Shown: positions 6,636 through 64,000, counted from the stretch's first letter. The stretch: 64,000 nt of DNA from Dictyostelium discoideum (GCA_000004695.1 CM000153.2:2752001-2816000); one strand, 5' to 3'. The notes: generated by a model from the sequence alone, not told the origin. Program-made: numbers and translations.

Positions 6636-9135
<2,500 letters not shown>

Positions 9136-10808
9136 TAACTTTGTTTTTTTTTTTTTATTTATTTTTTTTGATTTATTTATTTTTTTTTTAATAAAAATAA
9201 ATTATTTAATTTTTAAATCTTTTTTTTTTTTTTTTATTCTTCAATTTTCTTTTTTTTTTTTTTTTTTTAAATTATCAAACAAATAAATAAATAATTTACA
9301 AGATTTCAATTTAATAATTATTTAAGTAATTTTTTTTTATTTTTCCTTTTTTTTTTATTTTCCATCATTTATAATTATTATTACTTTATTTTTATTTATT
9401 ACAATTGACGAAATCCAATAATTATTGAGCAAAATTAATTAACTTTACTAGATTGTAAATATATCACAAATTATATTTTATCTTTTTAATTAATTTTATA
9501 AAATATTTATTAATATCAATTTAGTAATATTGGAATTGGCTGGAAATATTTGATTATATTTTTATAAAATATTTCACTACAACTTTAAAAAATATTAACT
9601 AATGCAAATTAATTATATTTTTATTAATATTTGTTTTTGTGAAATTTAAAAAAAAAAAAAAAATTTTAATCTTTATTTATTCCAATTAGTATTTGTTTGT
9701 GAATATTTATATATTGGGTTATCAAAGGTATTATTTTAAAATTAGAGATATTTATTTAAAAATTGATTAAACTAAATATAATAATTTATTTAAAAAAAAA
9801 CTTGAAAATAATTAATTTTAAATTTAATTGAAAATGGTATAAATTTCATTAAAATAGTGTCCATATAAAACATTTAATGTTGTATGGTCAGGTATAGATC
9901 ATTTTATTAAGGGACAGGGACATTGGATTACTGATAAAGTTGGAAAGACAGGCCGAATATTTAACTTAAAAAAGAAATGATGAAAGGTGAAAGACAACAT
10001 GCCATTCAACAAAAGTCTATAAACTGGTCATGTAAAAAAAGTCTTTATAAGATGCCCAATTACTTTCAAAACTATCCTATTATGATCTCAAAAATTGAAT
10101 TTTATTAACATGTCAAGATGTAAGAATTTCACAAGTTAAATTACAATTAACCAACCAATTAATGGCTTAGATGCATCTTCTTTAAGTGAGGTTGATCTTC
10201 CCAACCTGAATTTAGTGAAAATGAAAGTACCCAGATTACTCGTCTATTTTTTAAAAACATATGAAAATGCTTCAAATCACAAAGCCAAAATATTGTAATT
10301 AAAGTGGGTGTAATAGAAATGGTAATAAATATGCATTGGTCAAGTCAAATTAGAAAAAATAATGTTTTGAGGAACTCCTCAACACAACTATTCAATAAAT
10401 CTTCTTGAGTTTTGTAAAACTCTCATTGTATATTTACATTATAGAAACTATTTCTTGAGGCTTTCACCTTTAAAGAATCTTCATTGGTGGTATTTAAAAT
10501 TTATACCGCTCAAATTACAAAATCAAATACATATATCAAATTTAATGATTTTTTTAAATACTCAAATAAAATAATTGTTTTATAATAAAAAAAACTTTAT
10601 TTTCAAAATTTAATTTTTTAATATAAATAAATCTATATCAATGTGTTTTTATAATTTTCATTTTAATTCAAAACCTTATTTATAAATTATTCTAAAAAAA
10701 AAAAAAATTAAAATCTCATAATGAAATTTTTAGCCTTTTTCAAAGATATAAAAAAAGTATTTTTAGAAATAAAAAAATAAATAAATAAATAATTAAATTT
10801 ATTTTTAA

Positions 10809-21265: not shown

Positions 21266-22260
21266 ATGTTGCTGTTATTATTATTATTATTATTATTATT
21301 GTTGCTGTTTAAAATACCATTACCAAGTGTATTATGAGTAGGAGAAGCAGATGGACTATCACCTTTTGCCTTTGGTGGTCTACCTCTCTTTTTAGGTGTA
21401 CCATCTGTGTTACTATCGGAAAATGATGTATTATTATAATCAGATTCATTCTCATCCTTTGGTTTCTTGGGTCTACCTCTCTTTTTATTGCTTCCTGGTT
21501 GTGGTACTGGTTTTGGTTGTGGATTACCTTCTTCATCCATCTTTGGTGGTCTACCTCTCTTTCTCTTTGGACCACTGGTATCTTTTGGTTCTGATGGTGG
21601 GTTTTTACGTGGACGACCTCTTGATCTCTTATCTGCTGAATTTGCTGATGATTGAGTTGGTGATGAATTAATACCCAAATTACTATTATTATTATTATTG
21701 TTGTTGTTACTATTATTATTATTATTATTAATATTGCTATTATTATTGTTATTGTTATTATTATTATTTATTGGTTGTGGTAATGATGATTGATTTTGAA
21801 TTGCTAATAAATATTAAATATTTAGTGTATATATATATATTAGAAAATATGAATATTAATATTTTAAATATATTATTTATTAATATTAGTAAAATTTATA
21901 ATTACCTAAACTTAAACCATTTAAATTGGTTCCATGCATTTGTGGTTGACCATTATTATTACCGCTATTGTTTCCATTATTACCACCTCCCATCATATTA
22001 TGACCCATTAATCCTAAACCATTTGGATTCATCAATGGTGGTGGAAGAGTTGTATGTAAATTATATTGTGGTTGTTGCATTTGTGGAGCTTGTTGATGCA
22101 AGTTTTGGATTGGTTGTTGCATTGTTTGCTGTGGTTGTTGTTGTTGTTGTTGTTGTTGTGGTTGTTGTTGTTGTTGTGGTTGTTGTTGTTGTTGTTGTTG
22201 CAATGACTGATTTTGAATTCCGTGAAGTTGTGAAAGATTTGGTAGAGTGGGTGTGCTCAT
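20764..22260 (-). CDS. AT-hook DNA-binding protein with long poly-N/poly-Q tracts, 2 exons: complement(join(20764..21803,21906..22260))
   Basis: Exon 1: MSTPTLPNLSQLHGIQNQSL(Q)n...NGLSLG, ending at donor G|GTAATT in phase 1. Exon 2 starts after the TTATTAG acceptor: ..AIQNQSSLPQPINNNN...SPTQSSANSADKRSRGRPRKNPPSEPKDTSGPKRKRGRPPKMDEE...KKRGRPKKPKDE...KKRGRPPKAKGDS... This carries at least four canonical AT-hook cores (RGRP). The track ORFs on the opposite strand here are low-complexity artefacts. Confidence 0.7.
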
Positions 22261-22962
22261 ATCTTTAAAAAATCGAGATTAAAAAAAAAAAAAAAAAAAG
22301 AAATTAGTATTTTTTTTTTTTTTTTTTTTAATATGATTTATTTGACTTTAATTATTTAATTTTTTTTTTATTTCAAATATTTAAAATGAAAAAAAAAAAA
22401 AAAAAATAAAATAAAAAATAAAAAAAAAAAAATAAAAATTTTATTTTTTTTTTTTTTTATTTTTTTTTTATTTTTTTGAAATTAAGATAATTTTAGAATG
22501 TTACGGTTTTTTGTGCGTCCGTTATATATTAAAAAATACGATGATCACCGCCTTTTAACGGCTATATGATTGTGTCATTGTTTATTTTTGTTATATTTTT
22601 TTTTTTTTTTTTTTTATGTTATTACTAAAACTATTATTATTATTTTTATTATTTTTATTATTTTTATTTTATATTTTTGTTTATTTTTCATTTTTTTTTT
22701 TGTTATGCCATGTCATTACTAAAATATTATTATTATTTTTTTTTTTTTTTTGTTTGTTTATTTTTTTTTTTTTTTGTTTGTTTGTTTATTTTTTTTTTTT
22801 TTTTTTTTTGGATTTTTTGAAAAAAAAAAAAAAAAAAAAAATTATTATTATTTATTTTTAATATTCTTTTTTTTTTTTTTTATATAAAATATATATATAA
22901 ATAAAGACGAAAAAAATTAAAAAAAAATTAAAAAAAAATTAAAAAAATAAACCACTAACCCT

Positions 22963-22997
<35 letters not shown>

Positions 22998-23512
22998 AGG
23001 GGAACTAAACTTTAGGAATAAGGATGGCTTAAATAAAAAAAAGTCAAATCCCTATACAAATACAACTTTGATTTATATTTATCGATGGATCTAAAAAAAT
23101 TATGATTTTGGGCCCTTTTTTTAAAATTTTTGGATTTTATGGGTATTAATTAATTTATTTTATTTTATTATTAATATTTTTATTTAAATAAAAAAAAAAA
23201 AAAAAAAATTTGAAAAAAATTAAAAAAAAAAAAATTAAAAAAAATTAAAAAAAAAATAATTTTAAAATTTCAAAAAAAAATAAAAAAATTTAAAAAAAAA
23301 AAAAAAAATTTCAAAAAAAAAAAAAATTTTTTACTAAATAAAAAAAAAAATAAAAAAAAATAAAAAAAAATAAAAAAAAAAATAAATATTAACAGCAAAA
23401 AAAGTTTCAGTTAAAAAATTCAAAAATTTTTTTTTTTTTTTACCGTGTGTTTTATTACTTTTTTTTTTTTGAACATTTATTAAAATATGAGTTTAGTTTT
23501 TTTTTTAAAAAA

Positions 23513-23551
<39 letters not shown>

Positions 23552-23625
23552 TAATTAATTAAATTGAGGATGATTAATAATTTTAATTCTATTTTTGAGA
23601 TTTTTAAATAATTTTTTTTTTTAGA

Positions 23626-23737
<112 letters not shown>

Positions 23738-23793
23738 TTTTTTTTATTTTTTTTATTATTTTTTTTTTATTATTTTTTTTTTGTCCATATATA

Positions 23794-23826
<33 letters not shown>

Positions 23827-24929
23827 TATTTTTTTGTTATTTAGTATCAGTTAGAGATTAATCTGAATTGAGTTGTAGTTGATTTTTTTTAAATTTCAAC
23901 TATCCGATGTATCTAACTTCATTGATTTTATACGCAGCCAAGTTTTCCCAACCTTTGTCATACTGACTCGACCTTTACATTTTCCGACCTTTCGGCAAGT
24001 TGATGAATTGGTTTCTTTGTCGTTTTTTAGTATGAGCTTAGACTATTTCTGTTACCTGACCATTACATTGTTTGTAATTTCCCCCCTAGAGATTTTCGCG
24101 TACTCAGACCTTCCCATATTATTCTCTCTTTATGATTTTAAAAATTTGTGAGAGATTCCTTTTTTTAATGATTGCCATTTGTTGAATATTACATTGGTTT
24201 CAAACCAATACCAAATAATCAAAATAAAATACCCCATTGACATTTGATTTTGTGATGACTTTTGTGGAAATTTTTCAAAAACGTAAAAAATTTTATGGGA
24301 ACAATCAATTTTTTTTTTTTTTTTTTACTAAAATAAAAAAAAATAAAAAAAATAAAAAAAATATTTTTTAAAAAAGTGTGGAGATGATTATGGTGAAGTT
24401 ATTTAACAGTTTTTATATTGGTTGGTGCAATGATAAGTGATTAAAAAGAATTTGGTAAAAAAGTTATTAATGAATCTTTTTTTTTCAAAATAAAAGAATA
24501 AAAAAAAAAAAAAAAAGAAATTAAATTTTTTTTGAATTGGAAAAAAAAGAAATTAAATAATTATTGAAATAATAAAAATAATAATAATAATAATAAAATT
24601 AAATAATAAAATTAATGTATATTTTTTTTTCCCTATTTAATCTTTGAAATATCAAATAAACAAACAAGTTTTTGTATATAAAATATCTATTTATCTATTG
24701 TTTTTATTATTTTCTTTTATTACCAAATCAATTTTATTTTTTTAATTTTTTTATTATTTTTTTATTTTACAAGATATAATTTTGAATCTATAAATAAATT
24801 AATTGTTTTAAAATTATTTTATAAATGTAAATTTGAAAAAAAAGAATTAAAAAGAGTTTTTGAAAAATGCCCAATTGATGAATTAAAATTTAAAATTAAA
24901 GATTTAAAAAATTCATGTATTTCAATTAT

Positions 24930-25200
24930 TTATTTAAATTTTAATGAATAAAATAATATTATATTTAAAAATGTAAATGAAATTAATGAATTATATAAAT
25001 CATTATTTTTATTAAAATCAGATAGAAATCAAATAATATTAGATTTTATTTATGATCAATATTCAAATAATAATAAAGATAATGAAAAATTTAATTTCAT
25101 TTTAAAATTATTGAAAATGTATTTTGAAAATTGTAATTCAAATCATGATGAATTCTATTCAATGTTATTAAATAATAGGCATTATTAATATAAAAGTAAT
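24930..25200 (+). pseudogene. Frame-disrupted N-terminal fragment of a lineage-specific family gene (paralog of the 26336..29617 gene)
   Basis: One frame reads ..LKSDRNQIILDFIYDQYSNNNKDNEKFNFILKLLKMYFENCNSNHDEFYSMLLNNRHY* and aligns with ITKIERNQKIFDFVYYQYNSDNKNKLKSILKLLGLFYGHSFFEGNEFYSLLAGEK of the full-length paralog. Homology then continues in a different frame (..NSIKFGNFQLFKVM ~ HSFRFGDIELFKEV) into the 25267 ORF. This indicates a frameshift and stop near 25195-25200. Confidence 0.45.
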
Positions 25201-25266
25201 GAACCTAGAAGAAATCAATTATTTAAGAATTCAATTAAGTTTGGAAATTTTCAATTATTTAAAGTA

Positions 25267-26139
25267 ATGTTTAAATTAATAAATTGTTTATTTGATTTTT
25301 ATGAACCCGTTTCAAATGATGGATTTAAACTAATGTTATTTCAATTTGAAAATAATTTAAATTATAAAATCGAATTTATTAAACAAGTTTGCCAATTGGT
25401 TAAAAATAATTCAAATTATTTAAATTTTATATTTAATCAAGTTTTATTGTATGATGATTTAGAGTTAATAGAATTAGGATATAACCAATTAGATAAGCCA
25501 ATGTTAAAAATTGAATTTATAAATCAAGATAATTATAGAGAAAGTACTAATAGTAATAAAAAAGAATGTGAAGCTGAATTTTATTTTATTAGGTCAGAAG
25601 GAGTGTTGGAATTTATTTTTAAAAATTATTTAAAAAATTGTAATAAAATATTACCAATTACCAATTTCATTTATAATGGCAGATTAGATTTAGTTGAAAA
25701 GTATAAATCATTATTATTATCATCATCATCATCACAAGAAATATCATATATTGAACCATCATTTAAATTAGATCCACCAATTTGTTATTCTCATAGACTT
25801 TATTCAATTACTATTGCAATGGAAGCAATGATTGGTTTTATAAATTCACCATCACTTTCAAATGGTTGTGGTGATAGTGATGATGGCGTAATTTTTAAAA
25901 ATGAACATTTCTTTGGTTTAAATAATTTAAAATTAATTTCTGATTTTATTTATTTAATTAATCATAAATTTACAAATCAAAAAGGACCATTCTATTTTAG
26001 TTTTTATGGTCACCCAAGACTAAAATTTTATATTAAAATTTTAATTGCAAGATGGATATATTTTAATAAACCAAATCATTTTGAAAGATTTGGATTTAAT
26101 ATTTTAGATTTATTAATTAAAAAAAATAAAATTTTATAA
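25267..26139 (+). CDS. Truncated paralog (290 aa) of the lineage-specific family protein, corresponding to the central region of the 1093-aa protein
   Basis: MFKLINCLFDFYEP...NQVLLYDDLELIELGYNQLDKPMLKIEFINQDN...FYFIRSEGVLEFIFKNYLKNCNKILPITNFIYNGRLDLVEKYKSLLLS... is collinear with ..FFGQVLLYDDLELIELAYNQLNKPMLKIEHMNE...FHFIRSEKVLEFVFNNCLKNNSKVLPITAFIYNCRLDLVEKYKSLLLS.. in the downstream gene. Whether it is expressed is uncertain, since the upstream homology is frame-shifted. Confidence 0.5.
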   Translation: MFKLINCLFDFYEPVSNDGFKLMLFQFENNLNYKIEFIKQVCQLVKNNSNYLNFIFNQVLLYDDLELIELGYNQLDKPMLKIEFINQDNYRESTNSNKKECEAEFYFIRSEGVLEFIFKNYLKNCNKILPITNFIYNGRLDLVEKYKSLLLSSSSSQEISYIEPSFKLDPPICYSHRLYSITIAMEAMIGFINSPSLSNGCGDSDDGVIFKNEHFFGLNNLKLISDFIYLINHKFTNQKGPFYFSFYGHPRLKFYIKILIARWIYFNKPNHFERFGFNILDLLIKKNKIL

Positions 26140-26335
26140 ATAAAATAAATAAAATAAAATAGAATAAATAAAAAAAAAAATAAAAAAAAATTAGGAAAAA
26201 AAAATCTATTTTAGCTCAAATACTTAGAAAAACATTTTATTTTTTTAATTTATATTTTTTTTTTTTTTTTTTTTTTTTAATTTTAGGTATTTAATTTTTT
26301 TTTTTTTTTTTTTTGTTTCTTTATTTCTGTTAAAA

Positions 26336-26690
26336 ATGGGTATTTCTAAGAGAGAAAAAGAATTATTAAATGTTACAGAAAAATTAAAAAAAGAAAATCA
26401 AGAATTAAAATCAAAACTTTCAACAAGAGAAAAATTAAATAAAAAAAACAATAATAATAAAGAGATTATCATAGAAGAAGAGGTTGAAAATGAAAATGAA
26501 AACGAAAATGGTAGTCAAAATATGGATTGTGGTTTAGAAAAAGAAAAAGATATAGATACAATAATGAAAGAATTAGAAACTAAAAAATATAAAACAATAG
26601 CAAAAATCGCAAAAACAAAGTATGGTGTTCAACAATTGGGTGGTAAAAAATTAGATATTTTAGAAAGAATTAGAGAATCTATTAAATTGA

Positions 26691-26743
<53 letters not shown>

Positions 26744-27650
26744 GAGAAGAATCAACAACAACAACAACAACAACAAAAACAACAACTAATACCAATGAGT
26801 GGTGGTGAAAGATTATTTTGGAAAATTTTTAGAAATAAATATTTAAATAGACAAATTATAAATAAATTATGTACAGGAAAACATTCATTAAGATATGATG
26901 AAGTTTTTAATGTTAGTCGCATGATTGAATGTAATGAAATTGAATTGTTAAAAGACAAAGTTTATAGAAATCAATATTTAACAGGTTTTGAAAAATCATT
27001 ATCAGATTTATTTTCAGCAATTAAAGATGATAAAAAATTCTATATAAGCTTTTTTAAATTTTATCCAAAGATATCATTATTCAGTATTGATTATACTGTT
27101 GGAAATATTTTAAAATCTGATTGTATTGGTGCATTAAAATCATTAGTTGAAGAAAATAATTATAAACCAACTACCGATAATTTTATTCAATCAATTAAAG
27201 ATGGTAGTTATAAAACATTTAAATATATGATGAATCTTTTTGAAAATTCAAATAATAATGAAAATAATAATAATAATAATAAAAATAATAGTAATAATAA
27301 CAATAAAAATAGTATAGAGAAATTTAAATTACCATTCACAGAAAATGAATTTTGGAAATCAATATTTGGATACTGTTTTATAAAACGTGCTAAATTCATT
27401 AACTTTATGATTAACAGATACCATATAAAACCAGCAGCTGTGACACCACTTAGATTTAAAAAAATTTCAAAGTTTTGTCCAATCCAAGAATCATTACTTA
27501 TTAAAGATTTAATAAATATATGTGAATCTATGATTCATTTAAAAGTAAAACCAAAAGGTTTTTATCAAAATATTATTTTTAAAAAATTAAAAAAGAAAGG
27601 TGATAGTAAAAGTAAAAGTAAAAATGATAGTAGTAGTGATAGTGATAGCG

Positions 27651-27699
<49 letters not shown>

Positions 27700-27710
27700 A
27701 AGCGAAAGCG

Positions 27711-27771
<61 letters not shown>

Positions 27772-29617
27772 AAATGAAAAAGAAAAAAAAGAAAAAAAAG
27801 AAAAAAAAGATAATGATAGTAGCAGTGGTAATAGTGATAGTGAAAGTGATAGTAGTGAAAGCGAAAGAGAAAAAGAATTTAAAGAAACAATTGAATCAAT
27901 AACTAAAATTGAAAGAAATCAAAAGATATTTGATTTTGTTTATTATCAATATAATAGTGATAATAAAAATAAATTAAAATCAATTTTAAAATTATTAGGA
28001 TTGTTTTATGGCCATAGTTTTTTTGAAGGAAATGAATTTTATTCATTGTTAGCAGGTGAAAAAGTAAATATATCACGTAAAACAAAACATTCAGATTTAT
28101 TATTGCATTCATTTAGATTTGGTGATATAGAATTGTTTAAAGAAGTTTCAAGATCAACTATTTGTTCAACTATTCGAAATGTAATTTTTGAAGATAAATC
28201 ATTTGTTGGAAATATACCAATTCTCTTTCAATTTCAAAATAAAAAAGAAAATCAAATTCAATTCATTAAAGACATTTGCAAATATCTTAATATTGTAACA
28301 CTCCAAAAGATATATGGAGATAATCATATTTACATTTTCTTTGGGCAAGTTTTATTATATGATGATTTAGAATTGATAGAATTAGCATATAATCAATTAA
28401 ATAAACCAATGTTAAAAATTGAACATATGAATGAAATAGGAATCACTGAAATTTCAACCAATTTTGGTGGTAATCCAAGTTTTCATACTGAATTTCATTT
28501 TATTAGATCAGAAAAAGTATTGGAATTTGTTTTTAATAATTGTTTAAAAAATAATAGTAAAGTATTGCCAATTACAGCATTTATTTATAATTGTAGATTG
28601 GATTTAGTTGAAAAGTATAAATCATTATTATTATCAGTACCAGCAGCACCACCATCGCCATTGCTTAAAAGAGATATAGTTTTCAAAGTACCACTTCCAC
28701 CAATATTAAATACTTGCCAATTCAATTCAATGGGTTTAGTATTGAAAACATTTATAGATTTCCTTCAATCACCTCTATCAAAAGGTTGTGGTGATAGTAA
28801 AGGTGTTGTTTACAAAAGTTCTCATATAGTTAGCTATAAAGGCGTCAATTCAGTATTGGATTTTACCTATCTTTACTCTATAACTCTAGATAGAAATTCT
28901 GGCAATGGTATACCCTTTCTACCAGGCAGAGGCAGTCTAAATTATTATTTTGTAGTTGCAGTTCAAAGATGGTTATTCTACAACAGAAATGTTTTACCAA
29001 ATAGTTATAATTTCACACTATTCTCTGAAAAATATTGTTATTTTGGTATTGGTTATTCTCATGCTTCAAAAAAACCAAAAGAAATTTTCAATACTATTGA
29101 AGATACTGAATGTAAAGGTTTCATTAATGATTTTATTAAATTAGGTTTACCAAATTTTCATTCGGCTACAACTGAAACAACAACACCAACAACACCAACA
29201 ACAACACCAACAACAACAACACCAACAAAAAAAACAACCATAACTGGTAACAATCCAGATGTAATTTTAAATAATGGCGATAAAATTTGTTTTGCAAATT
29301 ATCTTAGAGGTTTATTGGAAAAAGAAGCAACAAAGGGTCATATTAGATTATTTAAAGCTTTGGTTGATAATGGTTATAAATCAATATTTTCAAAAAGATC
29401 AAATGATTCAAAAAGTATTTTCGATCAAATTCAATTACACGAAATACTCTATCGTGCTTTAAGAAATAACCATTTACAATTATCTCTTTATCTTTTAGAG
29501 GATTGTAATATTTCAATCACTAATACCCAATTTTATTCAAATGTTTCTAAAAGATTTGAATATTCTGCAACTTTTTATGCTTTAAAAGATTTATTTAAAA
29601 ATAATGAAATAATTTAA
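26336..29617 (+). CDS. Large lineage-specific hypothetical protein (1093 aa) with an N-terminal coiled-coil-like region, poly-T/poly-Q, and a (SE)n acidic repeat block; full-length member of the local tandem family
   Basis: Single uninterrupted ORF with Dictyostelium-typical codon usage. The internal GAAAGT/GAAAGC hexamer repeat (27650-27780) encodes about 38 SE dipeptides. Paralogous segments lie upstream (24930-26139) and downstream (29750-30450). Confidence 0.7.
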
Positions 29618-29749
29618 ATTTTAAAAAATAAATAATAAAATAAATAATAAAATAAATAATAAAATAAATAAATAAAATACTATAAATAAGATTTAAAAAG
29701 TGATCAATTTTTTTTTTTTTATTTAAATTACAATTTTTTTAAATGTTAA

Positions 29750-30450
29750 CATTATTTCTATTCTTAATGAATTGAACCTTGTTTACTCTATTCGTCTCAA
29801 ATTGAAATAATAATGGTATCACCAACTTTTGATTACTCTTCAAATTCTCTAAATAAAAACAACTTACAATTATAATCTAAGGCAGGTAGCAGCTCCCAAA
29901 TCTAAAGATTCATTTATAGATCAAAGTGAATTCTTTTATATTAAATCGATCAAAGTATTGGAGTTTATTTACTACAATTTCAAGATGGTCATTCTTTAAT
30001 AAACAACTTGACCAATTTCCAGATAATTATCATTGCCTTGGATTACTACCAACAAGAACATTAAAATTTCTAAATTTAAATTTAAATTTCAACACTATAA
30101 ATGGTTATGATGATTTCATTAATGATGTAATTAAAATTAAAATCAAAATAGACGAAAACAAAAATATAACCATTCAAAATACAAATACCGAGTTCATTAA
30201 ATGGTTTCATAATATTTTATTAGCTAAAATATATTTAGGAGATATTAGAATATTTAAATCAATTGTCGATAATGGATATAAATAATTATTCTCAAATGTA
30301 TCCACAAATAATTACCATCCGAATGGTATTTTCAATCAATTTCAAGTTCGTGAAATTTTACCGGATGCCTTAATGTATGACCACTTAGAGCTATCTTCAT
30401 ACCTTTTAAATTTTTTTGAAATATCAATTCCAACAGTGGGGTTGTCTTTG
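29750..30450 (+). pseudogene. Degenerate C-terminal fragment copy of the family gene (third tandem copy)
   Basis: ELNLVYSIRLKLK ~ VLDFTYLYSITLD. The track ORF 29926..30285 (..YWSLFTTISRWSFFNKQLDQFPDNYHCLGLL...[32 protein letters not shown]) aligns with NYYFVVAVQRWLFYNRNVLPNSYNFTLF...ICFANYLRGLLEKEATKGHIRLFKALVDNGYK of the full gene. Homology continues after the stop in other frames (..FQVREILPDALMYDHLELSSYLL ~ IQLHEILYRALRNNHLQLSLYLL). Confidence 0.45.
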
Positions 30451-30464
30451 ATTTTTTATTTTGG

Positions 30465-30499
<35 letters not shown>

Positions 30500-30522
30500 A
30501 ACAAAATTAAAAAGTGAAAATG

Positions 30523-30557
<35 letters not shown>

Positions 30558-30621
30558 ATTTTTATGAAATACTAAATTGTAAAATAACAACAAAAAGGTA
30601 ATATATATACACCTAATAATA

Positions 30622-31781
<1,160 letters not shown>

Positions 31782-32038
31782 AATAAATAAAATAAAAATA
31801 AATAAAAATAAAAATAAATAAATAATATTACAAAATAAAATAAAATATACATATTAAAATTGTAATTTATTTTAAATTTTGATAAAAATGAAACAACTAT
31901 TAAATTTTAATAGAGAAAATAATACAAAGTTTTTTTTTTTATTTTATCAAAAATATATATTTATATATATAAAGAAAAGATAATCGAAAATATATGATGA
32001 GGAAGAAAGGGAATATTTTTTATATATATATTTTTTTT

Positions 32039-33261
32039 TTAATTCATTCTTAAATAAGAACCTGGAGCAAAACCATAAATACCATTTAATTCACCTTCCC
32101 ACCATTCACCTTCTGATTTATGAATTGTAATGATATCACCAGCTCTAAATGATAATTCAGAACTATCAACACCAGTGAAATCATATAATGCTGTGGCAGT
32201 TGAACTGCCACCACCACCATATAAAGGTGGTGGAGCAGAAGCACCACCATATGGATTTGGTGTTGATTTTTGTAAATTTAAATTTGAAGGATTTGGTGAT
32301 TGATGGATATCTTTATCTACAGTTGAATATTGTTGTTGATCTTGTGCACCTGGTTTCATCTTTATTGACGCATTACTCTTAAATACTGGATCTGATCTTA
32401 AATTAATTGATGCTGCTGATCTTTCAACACTTGTAATTACTGGTTGATGATCTCTACCTGAATATTCATCAACATGTTTTGTAAGTGATGGTAATGGACT
32501 CCATTCATATGATACTTTTTTATGAAATTCTGATTGATATTTTATTAACTATTTTTTTAAATAACAATAAAAAAGAAAAAAAAGAAAATAATATGTTAAT
32601 AATAATTTTAAAAACAAATTAATAATAATTTTAAAAACAAACATACAGAAGCAACTAAATAATCTATAAAAATTAATTTATCTTCATTTAATCTTGGTAA
32701 ATCATTTAATAATTCTTCATGTAATGAATCATAACCTTCTTTACAAATTCTTAATTTCTCTTCAGTTGGAGCTAATTTTGCTTTTGAAGAGGAACCAGCA
32801 CCTTTTTCACGAAGTTTACCAACTTCATTTTTATAACGATCCATATCAACCTTACGAGTTGTTAATTCTTCAGTACGTTTACGAGCTTCTTTATATTGAG
32901 AGATATAGTCTGACAATGGTTTTGTGTATGGTTCTGCCATTTGTTCAGTGTAGTCCAATAAATGTTTATCATTGTTGGTTGCTACATCTCTAAGTTTACT
33001 ACCAGGTGTCCACATTGGATCTTGTGTATCATAGAGATCGCATGCATCTTGAGCAATGTCGGTTGTAATCTTATTCAAGTCTTTATATAACTCAATCAAT
33101 TTCTTTGAATTCTTTTGAATCTTTACTAAACGTTCCTCAGTTGAAAATGTTCTTTCCTTTTCATAATGATATTGTACATCAATTGTTTCTTCACTATGAC
33201 CTGTCTTTGTAAATAACATTTGACGAGTTCTTGCAAATTGTGTTGTAATTTTATTTGACAT
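32039..33261 (-). CDS. BAR domain + SH3 domain protein (amphiphysin/Rvs167-like), 2 exons: complement(join(32039..32548,32647..33261)), about 374 aa
   Basis: Exon 1 (track ORF to the donor TCT|GTATGT) has an N-BAR-like sequence: MSNKITTQFARTRQMLF...EERLVKIQKNSKKLIELYKDLNKITTDIAQDACDLY...YKEARKRTEEL..MDRYKNEVGKLREKG...RICKEGYDSLHEELLNDLPRLNEDKLIFIDYLVAS. Exon 2 starts after the AAAAATAG acceptor: LIKYQSEFHKKVSYEWSPLPSLTKHVDEYSG.. ..ALYDFTGVDSSELSFRAGDIITIHKSEGEWWEGELNGIYGFAPGSYLRMN*. This has the canonical SH3 fold motifs ALYDF, WW.GE and G.FP.NYV. Confidence 0.8.
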
Positions 33262-36257: not shown

Positions 36258-36465
36258 TTATAAACAAACAAATAATAATTGAATTTTTTTAAATTTGAAA
36301 TTAAAATATCTTCTTAAGATTTTTTTTTTTTTTTTTTTTCTTTGATTTTTTTTTGATTTGAAAGTCAATCTGTTTTTTTTTTCATTTTATTTTTTTTATT
36401 TTTTTTATTTTTTTTATTTTTTTTATTTTAAAAATAATAACACCAAACCCAATATATACATAAAA

Positions 36466-36686
36466 ATGGATAATTTAAAGGAAATAAATAATGATAAATT
36501 ATTTTTTAAAGTTTTTAGAAATATTTATTTAAAAATGGTTATATTTTATCATATTAAATTATTAAATTATTATGAAATTAAAGATAATTATACATTTACA
36601 ATAGAACAATTTCAATCATTTAAATTTAAAGATCATTTATTAAAGTTAAGATTAATAGAACCAATACAAAAATTAGCAGCAGCAGC

Positions 36687-36724
<38 letters not shown>

Positions 36725-38220
36725 ATAATTATTATACAAAAGGTGAACTTTCAAAATTAATACCAAATTCAGTTAAAAGTTTATCAATAGATATTAATAA
36801 TCAATTAGTAGTTGGTGATATAAAAGATGGTTTAACAAGTTTAAAATTTGGTAAAAGATTTGATCAAATATTAACACCAGGATTATTAGTAACGGATGGT
36901 TCATCATTGGTTGAGTTTAATTCAGGTAGTGCATTTAGGAATGGTGATTTAGATTTACAAGTTGGGTCAATACCTTCATCTATTAAATCATTAACATTAG
37001 GTCACAGTTTTAATTCAGTTATTAATGAAAATGTTTTACCAGAAGGATTGGTAAAATTAAGATTTAAAGGATTTAATAAAATGATTGTAAGGAATTCTTT
37101 ACCAAATTCATTATTGGAATTGGAATTTGGTAGAAATTTCAATAGAGCTATAAGTGCGCATGGAACATTACCAAAATCATTGACATCGCTAACGTTGGGT
37201 ATCCACTTTACCCATGTTATCCATATTGGTACTTTACCACCAACACTAAAGAAACTAATTATTCAATCGGTTGGATATAATCAAAAATTTGAAAAAAAGG
37301 CATTACCAGATTCATTGGAGCATTTGGAGTTCAATAAAAATGGGTTCTTTAATCAACCAATTGCTGATAAATTTTTACCACCAAATTTGAAGACTTTGAT
37401 TCTTCCAAAACAATGGTCAAATAATTATGAACCAATTCTAGCACTCCAATTACCAATCAATTTAACTGATTTACAATTTTACTCGAATGAATGTTCTTTA
37501 TTTTTACAAAATGATTCAATACCATCAACAGTTTTAAATTTGAGGATTAATGGTATACTTGGTAATCATTATAGTTTTACAAGGGGTGCTAAAAGGTTAC
37601 AAGGAAATATTATACCTCCATCTATTACCTCTATTGAAACTGGTACGGTTATTAATCTTTCACATTGTATAAATTTAAAGAATTTCAAATTTGATGAAAG
37701 TTTTGATCAGAGGTCTCTATCAAAAGGTTATATACCATCAACTATAACAAATTTAAAACTTCCACCATTATGGAATAGAGAATTGGTATGTGCTAATGGT
37801 TTTGATTTATTTCCAAATTGTTTAAAATTTTTAGATTTAGCATCTTATAATTATCCAATTGGTGAAAATGTTTTACCACCAAATTTAGAATCATTAATAA
37901 TTAATAGTTGGAATTTACCAATTGAAAAAAATACATTACCTCAATCTATAACTTATTTATCAATGAAATCATTCAATCAAAGATTAACTCCATCATCTTT
38001 ACCAAAAAATTTAAAAACTTTAATTCTTCATAAATATAATGTATTATTAGTACCAAATTGTTTCCCACAATCAATTAGACTTATAAAACTTGGTTCAATC
38101 TTTGAAAGAAACAATATCCTATATCCATTCAATAATAATGTTACAATTATATTTGGTAAAAATGATATTAATTTTCCAATTTATCCAAAATTTGAAAATA
38201 AATTACGTTGTAGTGCATAA
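36466..38220 (+). CDS. FNIP-repeat-containing protein (Dictyostelium-expanded FNIP repeat family), about 584 aa
   Basis: Tandem ~22-aa repeats with the FN(I/L)P signature occur throughout: ..LKFGKRFDQILTPGLLVTDGSSLVEFNSGSAFRNGDLDLQVGSIPSSIKSLTLGHSFNSVINENVLPEGLVKLRFKGFNKMIVRNSLPNSLLELEFGRNFNRAISAHGTLPKSLTSLTLGIHFTHVIHIGTLPPTLKKLII... The likely start is the ATG at 36466 (MDNLKEINNDKLFFKV..). The track ORF start at 36358 lies in a poly-T/poly-F leader and is probably spurious. Confidence 0.8.
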
Positions 38221-38282: not shown

Positions 38283-39622
38283 TCATTTTAATGGTTCTGG
38301 ATTATTAAAATGTGTTTGAAATCTATTAATTAATAAATTATTTGATTTTAATATTCTTGATATAAATGAACCAAAATTTAAATTTGAATTAATTTGAGTT
38401 AAACCATCTTTTGGACCTAGTGATAGACTAATGATTGGTGGTAATAATTTATGTTTTGCAAGTTGGTTTTTATTTTTACCATTTGATAAATCTTTTATAA
38501 CTTTAGCTACTATATTCCCATGTGAAAGTGCATTGTATGTGGTTTTAAGTTCATCAAAATCTGTAATATCACCAATTGCAAATATATTATCGTATCCTTG
38601 AACTTGACAACTTTGATTAACTTTAATTTGACCAATTTCATTAATTTCATTTGAAAAATTAGTTTTATAAGATTCACTATTTAATTTAATACCAATTGTC
38701 CAAATTACAAAATCAGATTCAATTGATAACCCATTTTTAGTTTTATATGTTTTTAATGAAACTTGAAAATTTGGTGATGTTTGATTAATAAAACATTGTT
38801 TTATATCATCTGGAATTTCAATTCTATCATTTAATATAACTGAAACGTTTCTTTTTTTCATAGATTCATTAATTAAATTATTGAATTTATTATTTGTTTT
38901 GGATGATACTAATTTATTACCACTATGAACAATCGTAATTTTCTTTGCCAATTCTTTGTTTTTAATTGGATATTTATTAATAATTTCTCCAACAACTTCA
39001 CAACCTACTGAACCACCCCCAACTATTAATATACTTTTAGCTTGTTTAATTTGTTCTGATATGTCTTTATAGTAATTAAAAATTTCAGTACCTGATATTT
39101 TTTCTAATGGTGCTTTAAAAGGTGCCAATGAATTTGAACCAGTTGCAATTACTAAATAATCAAATGTTAATTCTTTACCATCTTCTAATTTTACAAGAGT
39201 TGGTGAAATTTCAATAACTGTACCATAAATAAATTTACCATTTTTCAATAGTTTATCATATGGTATATATATTTTTTTTGCCAATTCTGGTTCAACTATT
39301 GCTCTTATTGATGCAATACTATTAAAAAATGTTTGTTTTCTTTCAACAACAGTTACTTCAAAATTTGAATCTAATAATTTTGCAACTTGGCTACCTCCAA
39401 AACCACACCCAATTATTAAAACTCTTTTCTTTTCACAATCTCTTGTAATACTACTAAAATAATTAAAAATCTCTATTAATTTAATTAAAATAATATAAAA
39501 AAAAAAAAATTAATTATCTATTTTTTTTTTTTTTTTTTTTTTTTTTATTAATTAAAACAAATTAAATAATTTAAATATATTTTACTTTTTAAAGATTCTG
39601 AAATATTATAAAGGTAATTCAT
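38283..39622 (-). CDS. AIF/AMID (FSP1)-like FAD/NAD(P)-dependent oxidoreductase, paralog A, 2 exons: complement(join(38283..39472,39586..39622)), about 408 aa
   Basis: Exon 1 is ATGAATTACCTTTATAATATTTCAGAATCTTTAAAAA (MNYLYNISESLK), ending at donor A|GTAAAA in phase 1. Acceptor AATTAATAG joins exon 2: KIFNYFSSITRDCEKKRVLIIGCGFGGSQVAKLLDSNFEVTVVERKQTFFNSIASIRAIVEPELAKKIYIPYDKLLKNGKFIYGTVIEISPTLVKLEDGKELTFDYLVIATGS...ILIVGGGSVGCEVVGEI...FAIGDITD.... This contains two GxGxxG Rossmann motifs and is roughly 65% identical to the downstream paralog 42340..43503. The track ORF begins at an internal TTG. An in-frame upstream stop at 39510-39512 forces the intron model. Confidence 0.7.
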
Positions 39623-42339: not shown

Positions 42340-43503
42340 TTATTGGATTAAAGGTTTTGGATTATTTAATTGAGAAATATAACGATCAATAAATAATGAT
42401 TTTGATTTTATCATTTTTGTAGCAAAAGAACCAAGACACATAGTTGGACTGATTTGAGTTATACCATCTTGAGGACCTAATGAAAGACTAAGTATTGGAC
42501 CTGATACTTTATGTTTTGCAAGCTTATCATTACTTTTACCTTTAGATAAAGCATCGATTGCTTTTGCTGCAATTGCAGCATGATAGCCAGCATTATATGC
42601 TGTTTTAAATTCATCAAAATCTGTACAATCACCAATAGCAAATACATTATTGTATCCTTGAACTTGACAGCTTAAATTTACTTTTAATTGTCCAGACTCA
42701 TTGATTACATTTGAGAAATGTGATTGATATGATTCACTATTTGTTTTAATACCAACTGTCCAAATTATTAAATCTGCTTGAATTGGTACACCCTTTTCAG
42801 TTGTATAATTTTGTGATGATATTTGAATATTTGGTGAAGTTTGATTTAAAAGGTTAGCTTTAATTTCATCTGGCATTGTAATTCTATCATTTAATATGAC
42901 TTCAACATTTCTCTTTTTCATTGCTTTTGAAACGACATTTGTAAATTTATCATTCATTTTTGGATTCACTAATTTACTACCACTGTGAACAATTGTAATT
43001 TTCTTTACCAATTCTGAATCTTTAACTGGATATTTCTCTACGATTTCCGATACCAATTCACAAGCAACTGCACCACCACCAACTATTAATATACTTTTAG
43101 CTTGTTTAATTTGTTGTGAAAAGTTTTGGAAATAATTTAAAATCTCACTACTACTTTTCTTTTCTAATGGTGCTTTAAATGGTGCCAATGAATTTGAACC
43201 AGTTGCAATTACTAAATAATCAAATGTTAATTCTTGACCATCTTCTAATTTTGCAAGAGTTGGTGAAATTTCAATAACCGTGCCAAAAATAAATTTACCA
43301 TTTTTCAATAGCTTATCATATGGTATATAAATCTTTTTAACTAATTCTGGTTCAACAACAGCTCTAACAGATCCAACACTATGGAAAAATGTTTGTTTTC
43401 TTTCAACTACAGTTACATTAAATTTTGAATCTAATTGTTTTGCAACTTCACAACCACCATAACCACCACCAATTATTAATACTCTTTTCTTTTCTGATGT
43501 CAT
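42340..43503 (-). CDS. AIF/AMID (FSP1)-like FAD/NAD(P)-dependent oxidoreductase, paralog B, single exon, 387 aa
   Basis: MTSEKKRVLIIGGGYGGCEVAKQL... has an N-terminal GxGxxG motif. A second dinucleotide-binding motif (ILIVGGGAVACELVSEI) and the C-terminal FAIGDCTD motif are typical of the AIF/AIFM2/NDH-2 family. It is strongly similar to paralog A at 38283..39622, which lies in the same orientation. Confidence 0.85.
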   Translation of the reverse strand: MTSEKKRVLIIGGGYGGCEVAKQLDSKFNVTVVERKQTFFHSVGSVRAVVEPELVKKIYIPYDKLLKNGKFIFGTVIEISPTLAKLEDGQELTFDYLVIATGSNSLAPFKAPLEKKSSSEILNYFQNFSQQIKQAKSILIVGGGAVACELVSEIVEKYPVKDSELVKKITIVHSGSKLVNPKMNDKFTNVVSKAMKKRNVEVILNDRITMPDEIKANLLNQTSPNIQISSQNYTTEKGVPIQADLIIWTVGIKTNSESYQSHFSNVINESGQLKVNLSCQVQGYNNVFAIGDCTDFDEFKTAYNAGYHAAIAAKAIDALSKGKSNDKLAKHKVSGPILSLSLGPQDGITQISPTMCLGSFATKMIKSKSLFIDRYISQLNNPKPLIQ

Positions 43504-56779: not shown

Positions 56780-61839
<5,060 letters not shown>

Positions 61840-61923
61840 TATTTTAACAAATAATAATAAAAAAGAAAAAAAAAAAAATGATTTATTCTAATTTATATAT
61901 ATATAAAAAAAAAAAAAAAAAGA

Positions 61924-61969
<46 letters not shown>

Positions 61970-62005
61970 GAATAATAAAATTATAATTTATATGTTTTTA
62001 TTGTT

Positions 62006-62037
<32 letters not shown>

Positions 62038-62045
62038 TATAAAAT

Positions 62046-63374
62046 TTAACTAACTTGTTGTGGTGTCATTTGTAAACTTGTTAATTTACTAATCCAACAA
62101 GGTGGTAAAACTGTTAATTCTTTATTTGATTTATCATGAACAACAGTATTATCTAATTGGAAGATATCAATGTTTTCAACTTTTAACATTGCCAAACCAA
62201 CACCATGAATACCGGTAATGAATTTATCGGTTGATCTTGAAACTGTTTTAATTTCACTATCAGTACCAACTTTAACAGGTTCATCTGATGATTGTTGTTG
62301 ATTATGTTTTGGTGAGATATTTTTAACAATTAATGCAGAGTCTGATGGTGGATGCTCAAGATTTAATGCATTTAGAATACGTTTTGGGAAGAGTAATGAT
62401 TCTTTTGGTGGTTTTGTTGGGTCGATGATTGCTTCATCCATTACACTAGCACTTTCAACATCTTTAACACTCATTACAACTGGGAAAATTCTCTTTCTAA
62501 TTAAACCTGTGAAATGTGTTCTTGAGGTTAATTCTTGGCCTAAATAACATCCCTTATGAAAATCGACACCATTTAAAAGATCGAAATTATATTCCAATGG
62601 AATTATATTTCCCCATTGATATTCTTTAACACCTTGTGGTATACCTTGGCTTAGTCTAAATAAATTATAAATTGTTTCATCTTTACTTTCATATTTTGAT
62701 AATCTTTCTTCAACAACTAAAAAAATTTAAAAATAAAATAAAATAAAATAAATATCAATTAATAAATTATAATTTTATTTTATTATTAGTATTTTTATTA
62801 TTAGTATTAAATATTTACCTAATTGTTTATTATTTGGTACTAATAATCTAACACCCATGATTTGATGTCTTGGATCCATCATGACAGAACATTGATCTTT
62901 CTCTAATTGAGCAAATAATGAGTCATCTCTAACTGTCTTATAAGTTTTATCCAAGATTGAATAGACATTAAAATTTTCAGTGACATCAATGATATCAATT
63001 TTATTTCTAAGTTTATATTGTTTCAAATGGGCCATTGCTTCTTCCAAAATTGAACTATCAATATCGACAATGAACGAATCTAATCCACTGTTGTCTGAAC
63101 TACCTGGTGCCATTGAAATTGGTTTTGGGTTGCCATTATGATGTTCTCTATCAAGTGATATAATTGAATCAAATAATAGTCTACCATTTCCTTGAAGGAA
63201 ACCATTATAAATTGATGTATTTGTTGATTGATTATCCTTTAATCTATTCAAATTATTTGTTGTTAAACCTTGTAAATGCTTTAATGCATCAGGTCCAACC
63301 ACTTTAATTAAACTTCTACTTTTTAATGGTACAACACATTTTTTAATTTTTTCCAATGATTTTAAATTTATCAT
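62046..63374 (-). CDS. IBA57/CAF17-like protein (YgfZ/GcvT-fold putative transferase, mitochondrial Fe-S cluster assembly), 2 exons: complement(join(62046..62716,62819..63374)), about 408 aa
   Basis: Exon 1: MINLKSLEKIKKCVVPLKSRSLIKVVGPDALKHLQGLTTNNL..GVRLLVPNNKQL, ending at donor G|GTAAAT in phase 1. Acceptor TTTTTTAG joins exon 2: VVEERLSKYESKDETIYNLFRLSQGIPQGVKEYQWGNIIPLEYNFDLLNGVDFHKGCYLGQELTSRTHFTGLIRKRIFPV.... The KGCY.GQE signature and the L.L.G.D..KFLQG N-terminal motif are diagnostic of the YgfZ/CAF17/IBA57 family. Confidence 0.8.
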
Positions 63375-63706
63375 TATTATTATTATTATATTATAAATTA
63401 TTAATATTATTATTTAATAATTAATTTTAATTTTGGTTTTTATTTTTTTTTTTTCTATGGAAATAATAAATTATTTTAAAGTTTGTTTTTTATTTGTTTA
63501 TGTTTGCTTTTTTTTTTTTTTATTTTTTTTATTGCAAAATTTTTTTTTTTGGTGGTGGAATTATTGTAAATGTTTTTTATTTATTTTTTTTTTTTTATTT
63601 TTATTTTATTTTTTTTTATTTTTTTAATTTGAAAGGATAAATAAAGTATTTATTTTTTGAAATTAAAAAATTTTTTTTTTTATTTTTTTTTGATTTTCAC
63701 AATTTT

Positions 63707-63747
<41 letters not shown>

Positions 63748-63941
63748 AAATTATTTTATAAAATTACGTGTACACCTTTAAAAGGGGTGGGTGCTTATTC
63801 CAATTTTGTTTGTTTTCTTTTGTTTGTTTTTTGTTTTAATATTTTGGGATATAGGAGATAAAATATAAACAGTTGTATATTAATTAATTATTAATAAAAA
63901 ATAAAAATTAAAAAAAAAAAAAAAATAAAAAAAATTAAATT

Positions 63942-64000
63942 ATGAAAAGATTTATATTTTTAATAACATTGGTGTCAATATTATTATTATTATTTTTATC
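63942..64000 (+). CDS. 5' end of a gene encoding a protein with a predicted signal peptide (MKRFIFLITLVSILLLLFL..); truncated by the window edge
   Basis: ATG at 63942 in a good context (aaattATGa), followed by a hydrophobic leader. Only 19 codons are visible. Confidence 0.3.
   Translation, partial: MKRFIFLITLVSILLLLFL

Follow-up and report, generated by a model that had tools for sequence, protein, structure and literature searches.

How did three related genes, in different states of preservation, come to lie side by side in one intergenic region of the Dictyostelium discoideum genome? The question is raised by a stretch of 64,000 nucleotides (GCA_000004695.1, CM000153.2:2752001-2816000; hereafter the window, with a G+C content of about 20%), in which an earlier note, made from the sequence alone, had described a tandem array of a lineage-specific gene family and interpreted it as a birth-and-death locus. 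The arrangement itself is confirmed: a tblastn search of the flanks with the 1093-residue product of the central open reading frame (ORF; copy 2) finds the homologous copies 1 and 3, the three stand head-to-tail on the plus strand, and they differ in condition, two of them being disabled and the third open. Copy 1 matches residues 522-891 of the query at 25009-26082 (39% identity, E 2e-53), with a weaker upstream match to residues 375-416, and copy 3 matches at about 30193-30429 (44% identity, E 4e-13). We conclude that the block is very probably a single, evolutionarily young, dispersed segmental duplication with decaying genes, whose family is predicted to be divergent ankyrin-like. Its source would be a second array, here called array A, whose genes are named g1, g2 and g3 type. 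The block and its first two copies are as follows.

24807..30440, plus strand: the whole duplicated block ("array B"), about 5.63 kb, an insertion relative to other isolates, read as copied from ancestral array A
24808..26139, plus strand: copy 1, a 5'-truncated pseudogene of g1 (DDB_G0285087), corresponding to parent codons ~288-734, without a start codon or promoter of its own
26140..26335, plus strand: intergenic DNA between copies 1 and 2, duplicated along with copy 2 within the 24807-27877 alignment
26336..29617, plus strand: copy 2, an ORF, the open 1093-codon paralogue of the 1161-residue g2

The block is collinear with an array elsewhere on the chromosome

The gene DDB_G0285087 of AX4 (P0003) is encoded exactly at 2708873-2711077 of the same chromosome as the block, on the opposite strand (locus L002). 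It is the g1 gene of array A, which contains g1 (734 residues), g2 (1161 residues) and g3-type genes and adjoins SFXN, aldo-keto-reductase and acetyltransferase genes; in L002, DDB_G0285087 is followed by the 1161-residue gene, two short gene calls, and then acetyltransferase, RRM and DUF7906 genes. DNA alignment shows that window 24807-27877 is collinear with L002 10861-13953, intergenic DNA included, and window 27581-29759 with L002 13862-16038. The identities of these two segments to array A are 94% and 91%, values that are low because the differences are mostly insertions and deletions (indels) in repeats. Each copy pairs with its own counterpart in array A, copy 1 with g1, copy 2 with g2 and copy 3 with the g3 type. 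According to record coordinates and opposite strands, the two arrays form tail-to-tail inverted repeats separated by 39.5 kb on the same D. discoideum chromosome. Each array has its own, unique flanks, which are conserved in other species for A and B alike. The right end of the window (59879-64000) is itself collinear, by DNA alignment, with the genes flanking array A in another isolate.

In DNA so AT-rich and repeat-rich, a second array could be an assembly artefact, with one locus mis-assembled into two or with premature stops that are sequencing errors, and the absence of both the 1093-residue and the 1161-residue products from public protein sets would fit such an origin. Two different assemblies, however, agree base for base over the block. 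The 1093-residue ORF is encoded exactly on CM142510.1 of GCA_054883475.1 (D. discoideum; locus L001), a second, independent assembly from the same strain background, and over the 9.3 kb of window 23325-32632 the comparison gives 0 mismatches and 5 gaps. These gaps are poly-A length differences at 23518, 23797, 24500, 30465 and 30523, all outside 24807-30440. Arrays A and B moreover differ by dozens of substitutions and many indels and have unique flanks. An artefact is thus extremely improbable, and the premature stops are not assembly errors since GCA_054883475.1 is identical across the block; this removes the sequencing or assembly error that the earlier note had allowed for. The assemblies compared here appear to be those of a PNAS 2025 paper that presents long-read assemblies of AX2-214, diverged D. 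discoideum isolates, possible cryptic species, D. citrinum and other relatives (PMC12745789).

The insertion site is empty in two relatives

Using the RabGAP-TBC gene as anchor, we compared the site with the corresponding regions of isolate GCA_054859385.1 (L005) and of D. citrinum (L006). In L005, window 21679-24820 aligns to 6783-9807 and window 30454-30862 to 9804-10245, and the flanks abut. The flank arrangement is identical in L006, where the block is absent as well, and tblastn with copy 2 against both loci found no family homology. Because the flanks are joined in both L005 and L006, the ~5.63-kb block is an insertion specific to the NC4-derived strain lineage. A collinear source locus of high identity that includes intergenic DNA, an empty orthologous site and disabling lesions are all observed, as they are for a segmental duplication with unprocessed pseudogenes.

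Copy number at the parent locus is variable. The syntenic locus of D. firmibasis (L007) has 1 family gene, and the AX4/AX2 background has two intact genes and a remnant; there are at least 4 family gene calls in isolate GCA_054859355.1 and eight in isolate GCA_054859385.1 (L003/L004; 754, 1174, 283, 566, 472, 901, 919 and 882 residues, some of them fragments). The tandem expansion there is recent. This turnover between isolates and species, together with the head-to-tail arrangement of three homologous units on one strand, is what speaks for a classical tandem array, produced at the site of the block by local unequal crossing-over and with its members decaying in place. Several observations make such an origin very improbable. 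The units are only ~30-44% identical to one another at the protein level, whereas copies 1 and 2 differ, at aligned sites, by ~2-3% from g1 and g2 of array A, and copy 3 is ~92% identical to the g3-type gene of another isolate; the orthologous site lacks the block in two relatives; and the truncation of copy 1 coincides with the duplication boundary. Local tandem duplication, as assumed in the earlier note, is therefore rejected for this site, since the copies pair with array A and the D. discoideum isolate and D. citrinum lack the block. Birth and death describes the family as a whole, with its fast copy-number turnover at the parent locus, and not this site, which is better explained by a single dispersed duplication.

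Junctions, age and copying route

The left junction is sharp at 24806/24807 and corresponds to L002 10861, about codon 288 of g1; the right edge is also sharp and lies inside the g3-type gene. The empty-site junction reads ...AATTGTTT followed directly by GAAG..., while the window has AATTGTTT at 24801-08 and TTGTCTTTGA at 30441-50, which suggests that a few bases of microhomology or target duplication may be present at the block junctions. Their length is only 2-8 bp.

Transfer by a transposable element or by retroposition would account for a possible short target-site duplication (TTGTTT at 24803-08 and TTGTCTTT at 30441-48) and for the poly-A tract at the right flank of the block. That tract, however, occurs at the empty site too, and the block is not a processed copy because it contains intergenic DNA and three gene units. 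Neither terminal inverted or direct repeats nor transposon ORFs were found at the block ends, just low-complexity repeats, and no tRNA gene was found within the window, so that we regard this route as very unlikely. Instead, DNA-templated repair or replication template switching is the probable mechanism, because of the 2-8 bp of junction microhomology, an inverted internal piece (in copy 3, below) and the lack of transposon hallmarks.

The segmental duplication that we favour would have proceeded as follows. A 5.6-kb stretch of array A, starting inside g1 and ending inside a g3-type gene, would have been copied and placed, inverted, in the intergenic region that separates the RNase P RNA gene from the RabGAP-TBC gene, and this would have taken place in the NC4-derived laboratory strain lineage after its split from the other sequenced D. 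discoideum isolates. On aligned codons, the synonymous divergence (dS) is 0.034 between copy 1 and g1 and 0.016 between copy 2 and g2, as compared with 0.066-0.086 for the g1/g2 genes between AX4 and the other isolate.

Copy 1 is a truncated pseudogene with two nonsense codons

Copy 1 is ~95% identical at the protein level to P0003 (DDB_G0285087), which is intact. Three features mark its decay.

24949..24951, plus strand: first premature stop, TCA to TAA through C to A at 24950, derived when polarised with strain 2
25186..25188, plus strand: second premature stop, TCA to TAA through C to A at 25187, with an adjoining 3-bp deletion that is in frame
25267..26139, plus strand: residual 290-residue ORF past the second stop, with the natural stop at 26137-39

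Translated from 24808, copy 1 is a continuous homologue in one frame, apart from the two TAA codons. When copy 1 is aligned at the DNA level with both the parent gene and the orthologue of that gene in the other isolate, the two premature stops prove to be derived in copy 1, and its indels are all of 3, 6 or 9 bp. The frameshift proposed in the earlier note, which had split the homology across two frames, is thus not found: all the homology of 24808-26139 is in one frame, the disabling changes are the two in-frame TAA codons, and the indels are multiples of three. The stop placed near 25195 does exist, as the TAA at 25186-88, but no frameshift accompanies it, and the 290-residue ORF reported as left in copy 1 is indeed present at 25267-26139.

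Copy 1 was never a complete gene at this position because it was cut off at the duplication boundary. It would have arrived without its first ~287 codons and without a promoter, and would have acquired the two TCA to TAA nonsense codons afterwards. It carries 19 derived substitutions and parent g1 carries 9. All three premature stops of the block, at 24950 and 25187 in copy 1 and at 30284 in copy 3, are the same TCA to TAA (C to A) change, a pattern that fits an AT-biased mutation spectrum. BLAST of copy 1 against a plasmid collection gave no match, that collection being irrelevant for a eukaryote.

Copy 2 is open, and its changes are compatible with drift

Copy 2 is the only unit that would have arrived complete, upstream intergenic DNA included; 26140..26335 probably carries its promoter, because it was duplicated together with copy 2. 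The ORF is intact over 1093 codons (26336-29617), and the poly-T and poly-Q tracts described before are found as T17 at 26693-26743 and Q8 at 26753-26776. The acidic repeat, for which ~38 SE units had been claimed, is shorter: the uninterrupted run has 21 SE units, or 23 units with two SD (residues 434-479).

27635..27772, plus strand: (SD)2(SE)21 acidic repeat, encoded by (GAAAGT)n and predicted to be disordered

Against g2 of array A, copy 2 has a dS of 0.016 and a nonsynonymous divergence (dN) of 0.020, that is, a dN/dS of 1.23. About 60 differences distinguish copy 2 from the 1161-residue parent. Polarisation against the other isolate assigns 27 nonsynonymous and 4 synonymous derived changes to copy 2, and 10 and 3 to the parent. 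The 27:4 ratio does not differ from the neutral expectation (p = 0.50), and the asymmetry of 31 substitutions in copy 2 versus 13 in the parent is significant (p = 0.0096). An in-frame deletion of ~70 residues has removed the PIFPSL motif, which is conserved in the family. The open frame is weak evidence of function, because the probability that 31 neutral substitutions leave no stop is 0.13. This substitution pattern is compatible with neutral drift, as might be seen in a redundant paralogue under relaxed constraint or in an incipient pseudogene.

A different account of copy 2 is neofunctionalisation, in which positive selection would be reshaping an expressed paralogue that has a function. 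Its frame is open over 1093 codons with all 8-9 indels in frame, its upstream intergenic DNA was kept, its dN/dS against the parent is 1.23 with a local cluster of nonsynonymous changes, and the family evolves fast overall, with a dN/dS between isolates of 0.33 for g1 and 0.62-0.65 for g2. We nonetheless consider this account unlikely, although it keeps a real minority chance: the 27:4 ratio is not distinguishable from neutrality and the 0.13 chance of an open frame is not small, most of the indels fall within repeats of three- or six-nucleotide units, where slippage keeps the frame in any case, a family-conserved motif is lost with the ~70-residue deletion, and the product of copy 2 is absent from a collection of 15 billion proteins. 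This collection takes in the NCBI and UniRef entries for D. discoideum AX4. Both the 1093-residue product and the 1161-residue product (L002 12427-15912) are absent from it, though DDB_G0285087 is present; public protein annotation seems to lack both long genes.

Copy 3 is a scrambled remnant of a g3-type gene

Copy 3 consists of three pieces, compared here with the parent locus of isolate GCA_054859385.1 (L003).

29759..29902, minus strand: piece 1, an inverted g3-type fragment of 144 bp, 90.5% identical to L003 8238-8092, opposite strand
29903..29979, plus strand: piece 2, a g3 fragment of 77 bp, 96.1% identical to L003 8372-8448
29980..30437, plus strand: piece 3, the 3' part of a g3-type gene, 91.8% identical to L003 8817-9276

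Piece 3 has a premature TAA at 30283-30285, where the relative has TCA, and ends ~25 codons short of the normal stop. The earlier note had described a C-terminal fragment with homology continuing in other frames after the stop. Homology does resume past the TAA at 30283-85, but in the same frame; the out-of-frame parts, namely the 77-bp piece and the 144-bp piece on the opposite strand, sit upstream. In piece 1, tblastn finds IPLLFQFETNRVNKVQFIKN on the minus strand.

The third gene of array A is itself a remnant (L002 16022-17404), made of the 5' ~1.2 kb and a 180-bp piece. It is joined directly to the DNA that in other isolates lies downstream of their last g3-type gene, and it is annotated as two short genes of 144 and 216 residues. 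The AX4/AX2 background has no intact g3-type gene at array A or at array B. We also considered a reciprocal inversion, by which g3 would have been divided between A (5' half) and B (3' half), and rejected it because these remnants overlap and because the A-B interval is collinear with that of the other isolate.

Observations that do not fit a single young event

Some observations weigh against a single young duplication from array A as it stands today. First, the g3 pieces of the block share only 86.6% identity with the g3 remnant of array A where the two overlap, and 90-96% with the g3 copy of the other isolate. The donor array thus differed from today's array A, as the g3 pieces of the block are nearer to the other isolate's g3-type gene, and more than one event may have been involved. 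Second, dS could have been lowered by gene conversion between A and B, in which case the duplication would seem too young; an old origin is disfavoured even so, because the site is empty in the two genomes compared, one other D. discoideum isolate and D. citrinum. Third, copy 2 differs from its parent at 17 positions within 150 nt (28886-29036), a cluster that includes two AA to GG changes, counter to the AT bias. It could be a group of mutations associated with repair, or could stem from gene conversion by a paralogue outside the sample.

A Dictyostelium family of predicted helical-repeat proteins

A query with the full 1093-residue protein was swamped by low-complexity words and returned 5 matches, as did a repeat-trimmed alignment. 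An exhaustive HMMER search gave a wider superfamily of 93 cluster representatives at E <= 1e-3. All ten representatives that were looked up are hypothetical proteins from D. discoideum, D. cf. discoideum, D. citrinum, D. firmibasis or D. purpureum. The family is therefore lineage-specific, as had been proposed, all its named relatives coming from group-4 Dictyostelium, and the conserved blocks quoted in the earlier note occur both in the copies and in these relatives. A literature search for DDB_G0285087 found no paper.

The AlphaFold2 model of the full 1093-residue protein, built on an alignment of 51 sequences, is all-alpha, with a mean predicted local distance difference test score (pLDDT) of 71.7 and a predicted template modelling score (pTM) of 0.69. 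Its confident helical blocks span residues 155-417, 501-780 and 980-1090, and the low-complexity tracts are disordered. The model suggests the following segments in copy 2.

26348..26452, plus strand: residues 5-39, a long N-terminal helix (AlphaFold2 helix 5-39, pLDDT ~87), probably a coiled coil
26552..26707, plus strand: residues 73-124, a SAP-like helix-loop-helix (AlphaFold2 helices 73-81, 85-94 and 105-124, pLDDT at least 90)
26798..27586, plus strand: residues 155-417, a conserved LFWKIFRNKYL motif and then the predicted N-terminal helical-repeat (ankyrin-like) domain
27836..29614, plus strand: residues 501-1093, the predicted C-terminal helical-repeat domain, which holds the conserved blocks mentioned above

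The statement that no domain is recognisable stands insofar as the copies and their close relatives have no significant Pfam match, but the predicted fold is one of ankyrin-like helical repeats, and to this extent the AlphaFold model points to a known fold. Among the 51 superfamily members, Pfam matches are to Ank_2 (4 of 51, best E 4.6e-15), SAP (3), SAP_new25 (2) and Rho_N (1). The Ank_2 match of P0061, at residues 98-153, falls in the part aligned to the N-terminal domain of the family. The best hhalign match of the family to a single ankyrin (ANK) unit has 49% probability and covers residues 1036-1060. Sequence-level searches were otherwise negative: no Ank profile matched copy 2, copy 1 or P0001-P0003 at E <= 1-10; the pattern G-x-TPL-x-x-A matched P0095 alone; phmmer with a consensus ankyrin sequence retrieved just three distant canonical ANK proteins and no family member; and the superfamily profile matched, among PDB sequences, the TRP-gamma ankyrin region alone (E 0.37). 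Foldseek against the PDB gave generic HEAT/ARM/PPR solenoids at E >= 0.06 and nothing significant. In comparison with ankyrin-repeat proteins (Pfam clan Ank, such as designed ANK proteins, the ANK domain of the glutaminase C-terminus and Legionella AnkB), the family lacks a TPLH-type motif and has irregular repeat lengths. On the basis of the model, its members are probably divergent ankyrin-like repeat proteins.

The N-terminal part recalls SAP and helix-extension-helix proteins (PF02037, PF18953 SAP_new25, PF07498 Rho_N), which share the predicted helix-loop-helix with a G-G-K-K loop. UniRef calls DDB_G0285087 "SAP domain-containing", whereas copy 2 itself has no SAP match even at E <= 10. 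Against the gathering cut-off of 23.9 bits for PF02037, relatives score 22.0 and 21.1 and a g1 fragment 14.1; no sequence tested reaches it.

As to the conserved motif LFWKVFRNKYL, the same N-terminal motif is present in a FNIP-repeat protein, whose gene at window 36358 starts with KLFFKVFRNIYLKMVIF, to be compared with ERLFWKIFRNKYLNRQI in copy 2. This motif is thus a module of several Dictyostelium repeat-protein families, since it is common to the FNIP gene and the ankyrin-like family. The resemblance to FNIP-repeat proteins stops there: the family body is predicted to be helical and ankyrin-like, with no PF05725 match. The FNIP-repeat gene itself (Pfam PF05725, E 7.5e-67) lies at window 36358-38220 on the plus strand. 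An F-box identity for LFWKVFRNKYL is not supported, as no Pfam F-box occurs among the 51 members and the motif profile had one irrelevant match among PDB sequences (E 0.79).

The secreted or adhesion-type module suggested earlier is not supported, as the 1093-residue protein has neither a signal peptide nor a hydrophobic segment: the mean Kyte-Doolittle value of its first 30 residues is -1.15, and its top 19-residue window reaches 1.15, versus the usual membrane threshold of 1.6. The best reading of the model is that of soluble intracellular all-alpha proteins, with a long helix, a SAP-like helix-loop-helix, low-complexity linkers, the LFWKVFRNKYL motif and two ankyrin-like repeat blocks. By analogy, they may be scaffolds for protein-protein interactions, and the SAP-like motif may tether them to nucleic acid or chromatin. 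It has also to be considered that g1, g2 and g3 could form an intracellular ankyrin/SAP-like set, quick to evolve and variable in copy number, that is engaged in genetic conflict in the D. discoideum clade (self/non-self, symbionts or selfish elements) and that copy 2 is at the same time under positive selection, a combination that we judge improbable. If true, the block would be a newborn gene caught soon after a template-switching duplication, which would explain both the dN/dS of 1 or more and the 28886-29036 cluster.

Neighbouring features

To the left of the insertion, at a distance of 670 bp, is a nuclear RNase P RNA gene of full length, at window 23846-24136 on the minus strand (Rfam RF00009, 62.6 bits, E 2.9e-16). 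A 90-residue ORF antisense to it (23879-24151, plus strand) is probably spurious, and an automated 421-residue gene call in GCA_054883475.1 appears to fuse the RNase P RNA region with copy 1. Long (ATT)n / (TAA)n microsatellites are found at window 23625-23740 and 30777-30875; the latter is within the first intron of the RabGAP-TBC gene and makes a spurious poly-Ile ORF. Further along, two neighbouring Pyr_redox_2 (pyridine nucleotide-disulphide oxidoreductase) paralogues, at 38283-39284 and 42340-43503, both on the minus strand, look like another local duplication.

Discussion

In laboratory stocks of D. discoideum, large duplications of at least 15 kb have arisen recently (Genome Biol 2008, PMC2643946). 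These are likewise duplications of an intrachromosomal segment in the same species, and they differ from the present block, which is 5.6 kb long, inverted, dispersed and common to two NC4-derived assemblies. Because its dS to the source is ~0.02-0.03, the block predates laboratory culture.

The locus is an ordinary, well-resolved case of segmental duplication and pseudogenisation in a fast-evolving repeat-protein family, and it is unsurprising for eukaryotic genome evolution. Its value is mainly for annotation and population genetics. For annotation, it brings two long ORFs that are missing from the collection searched, a gene model that appears to fuse, wrongly, the RNase P RNA region with copy 1, and a "hypothetical" family that is probably ankyrin-like. 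The source locus, the empty site and both junctions are all visible, and one copying event would have given rise to a truncated pseudogene, a scrambled fragment and a complete duplicate. The locus is thereby a clean, datable case of the spread and death of gene arrays in a protist genome that is very rich in A+T.

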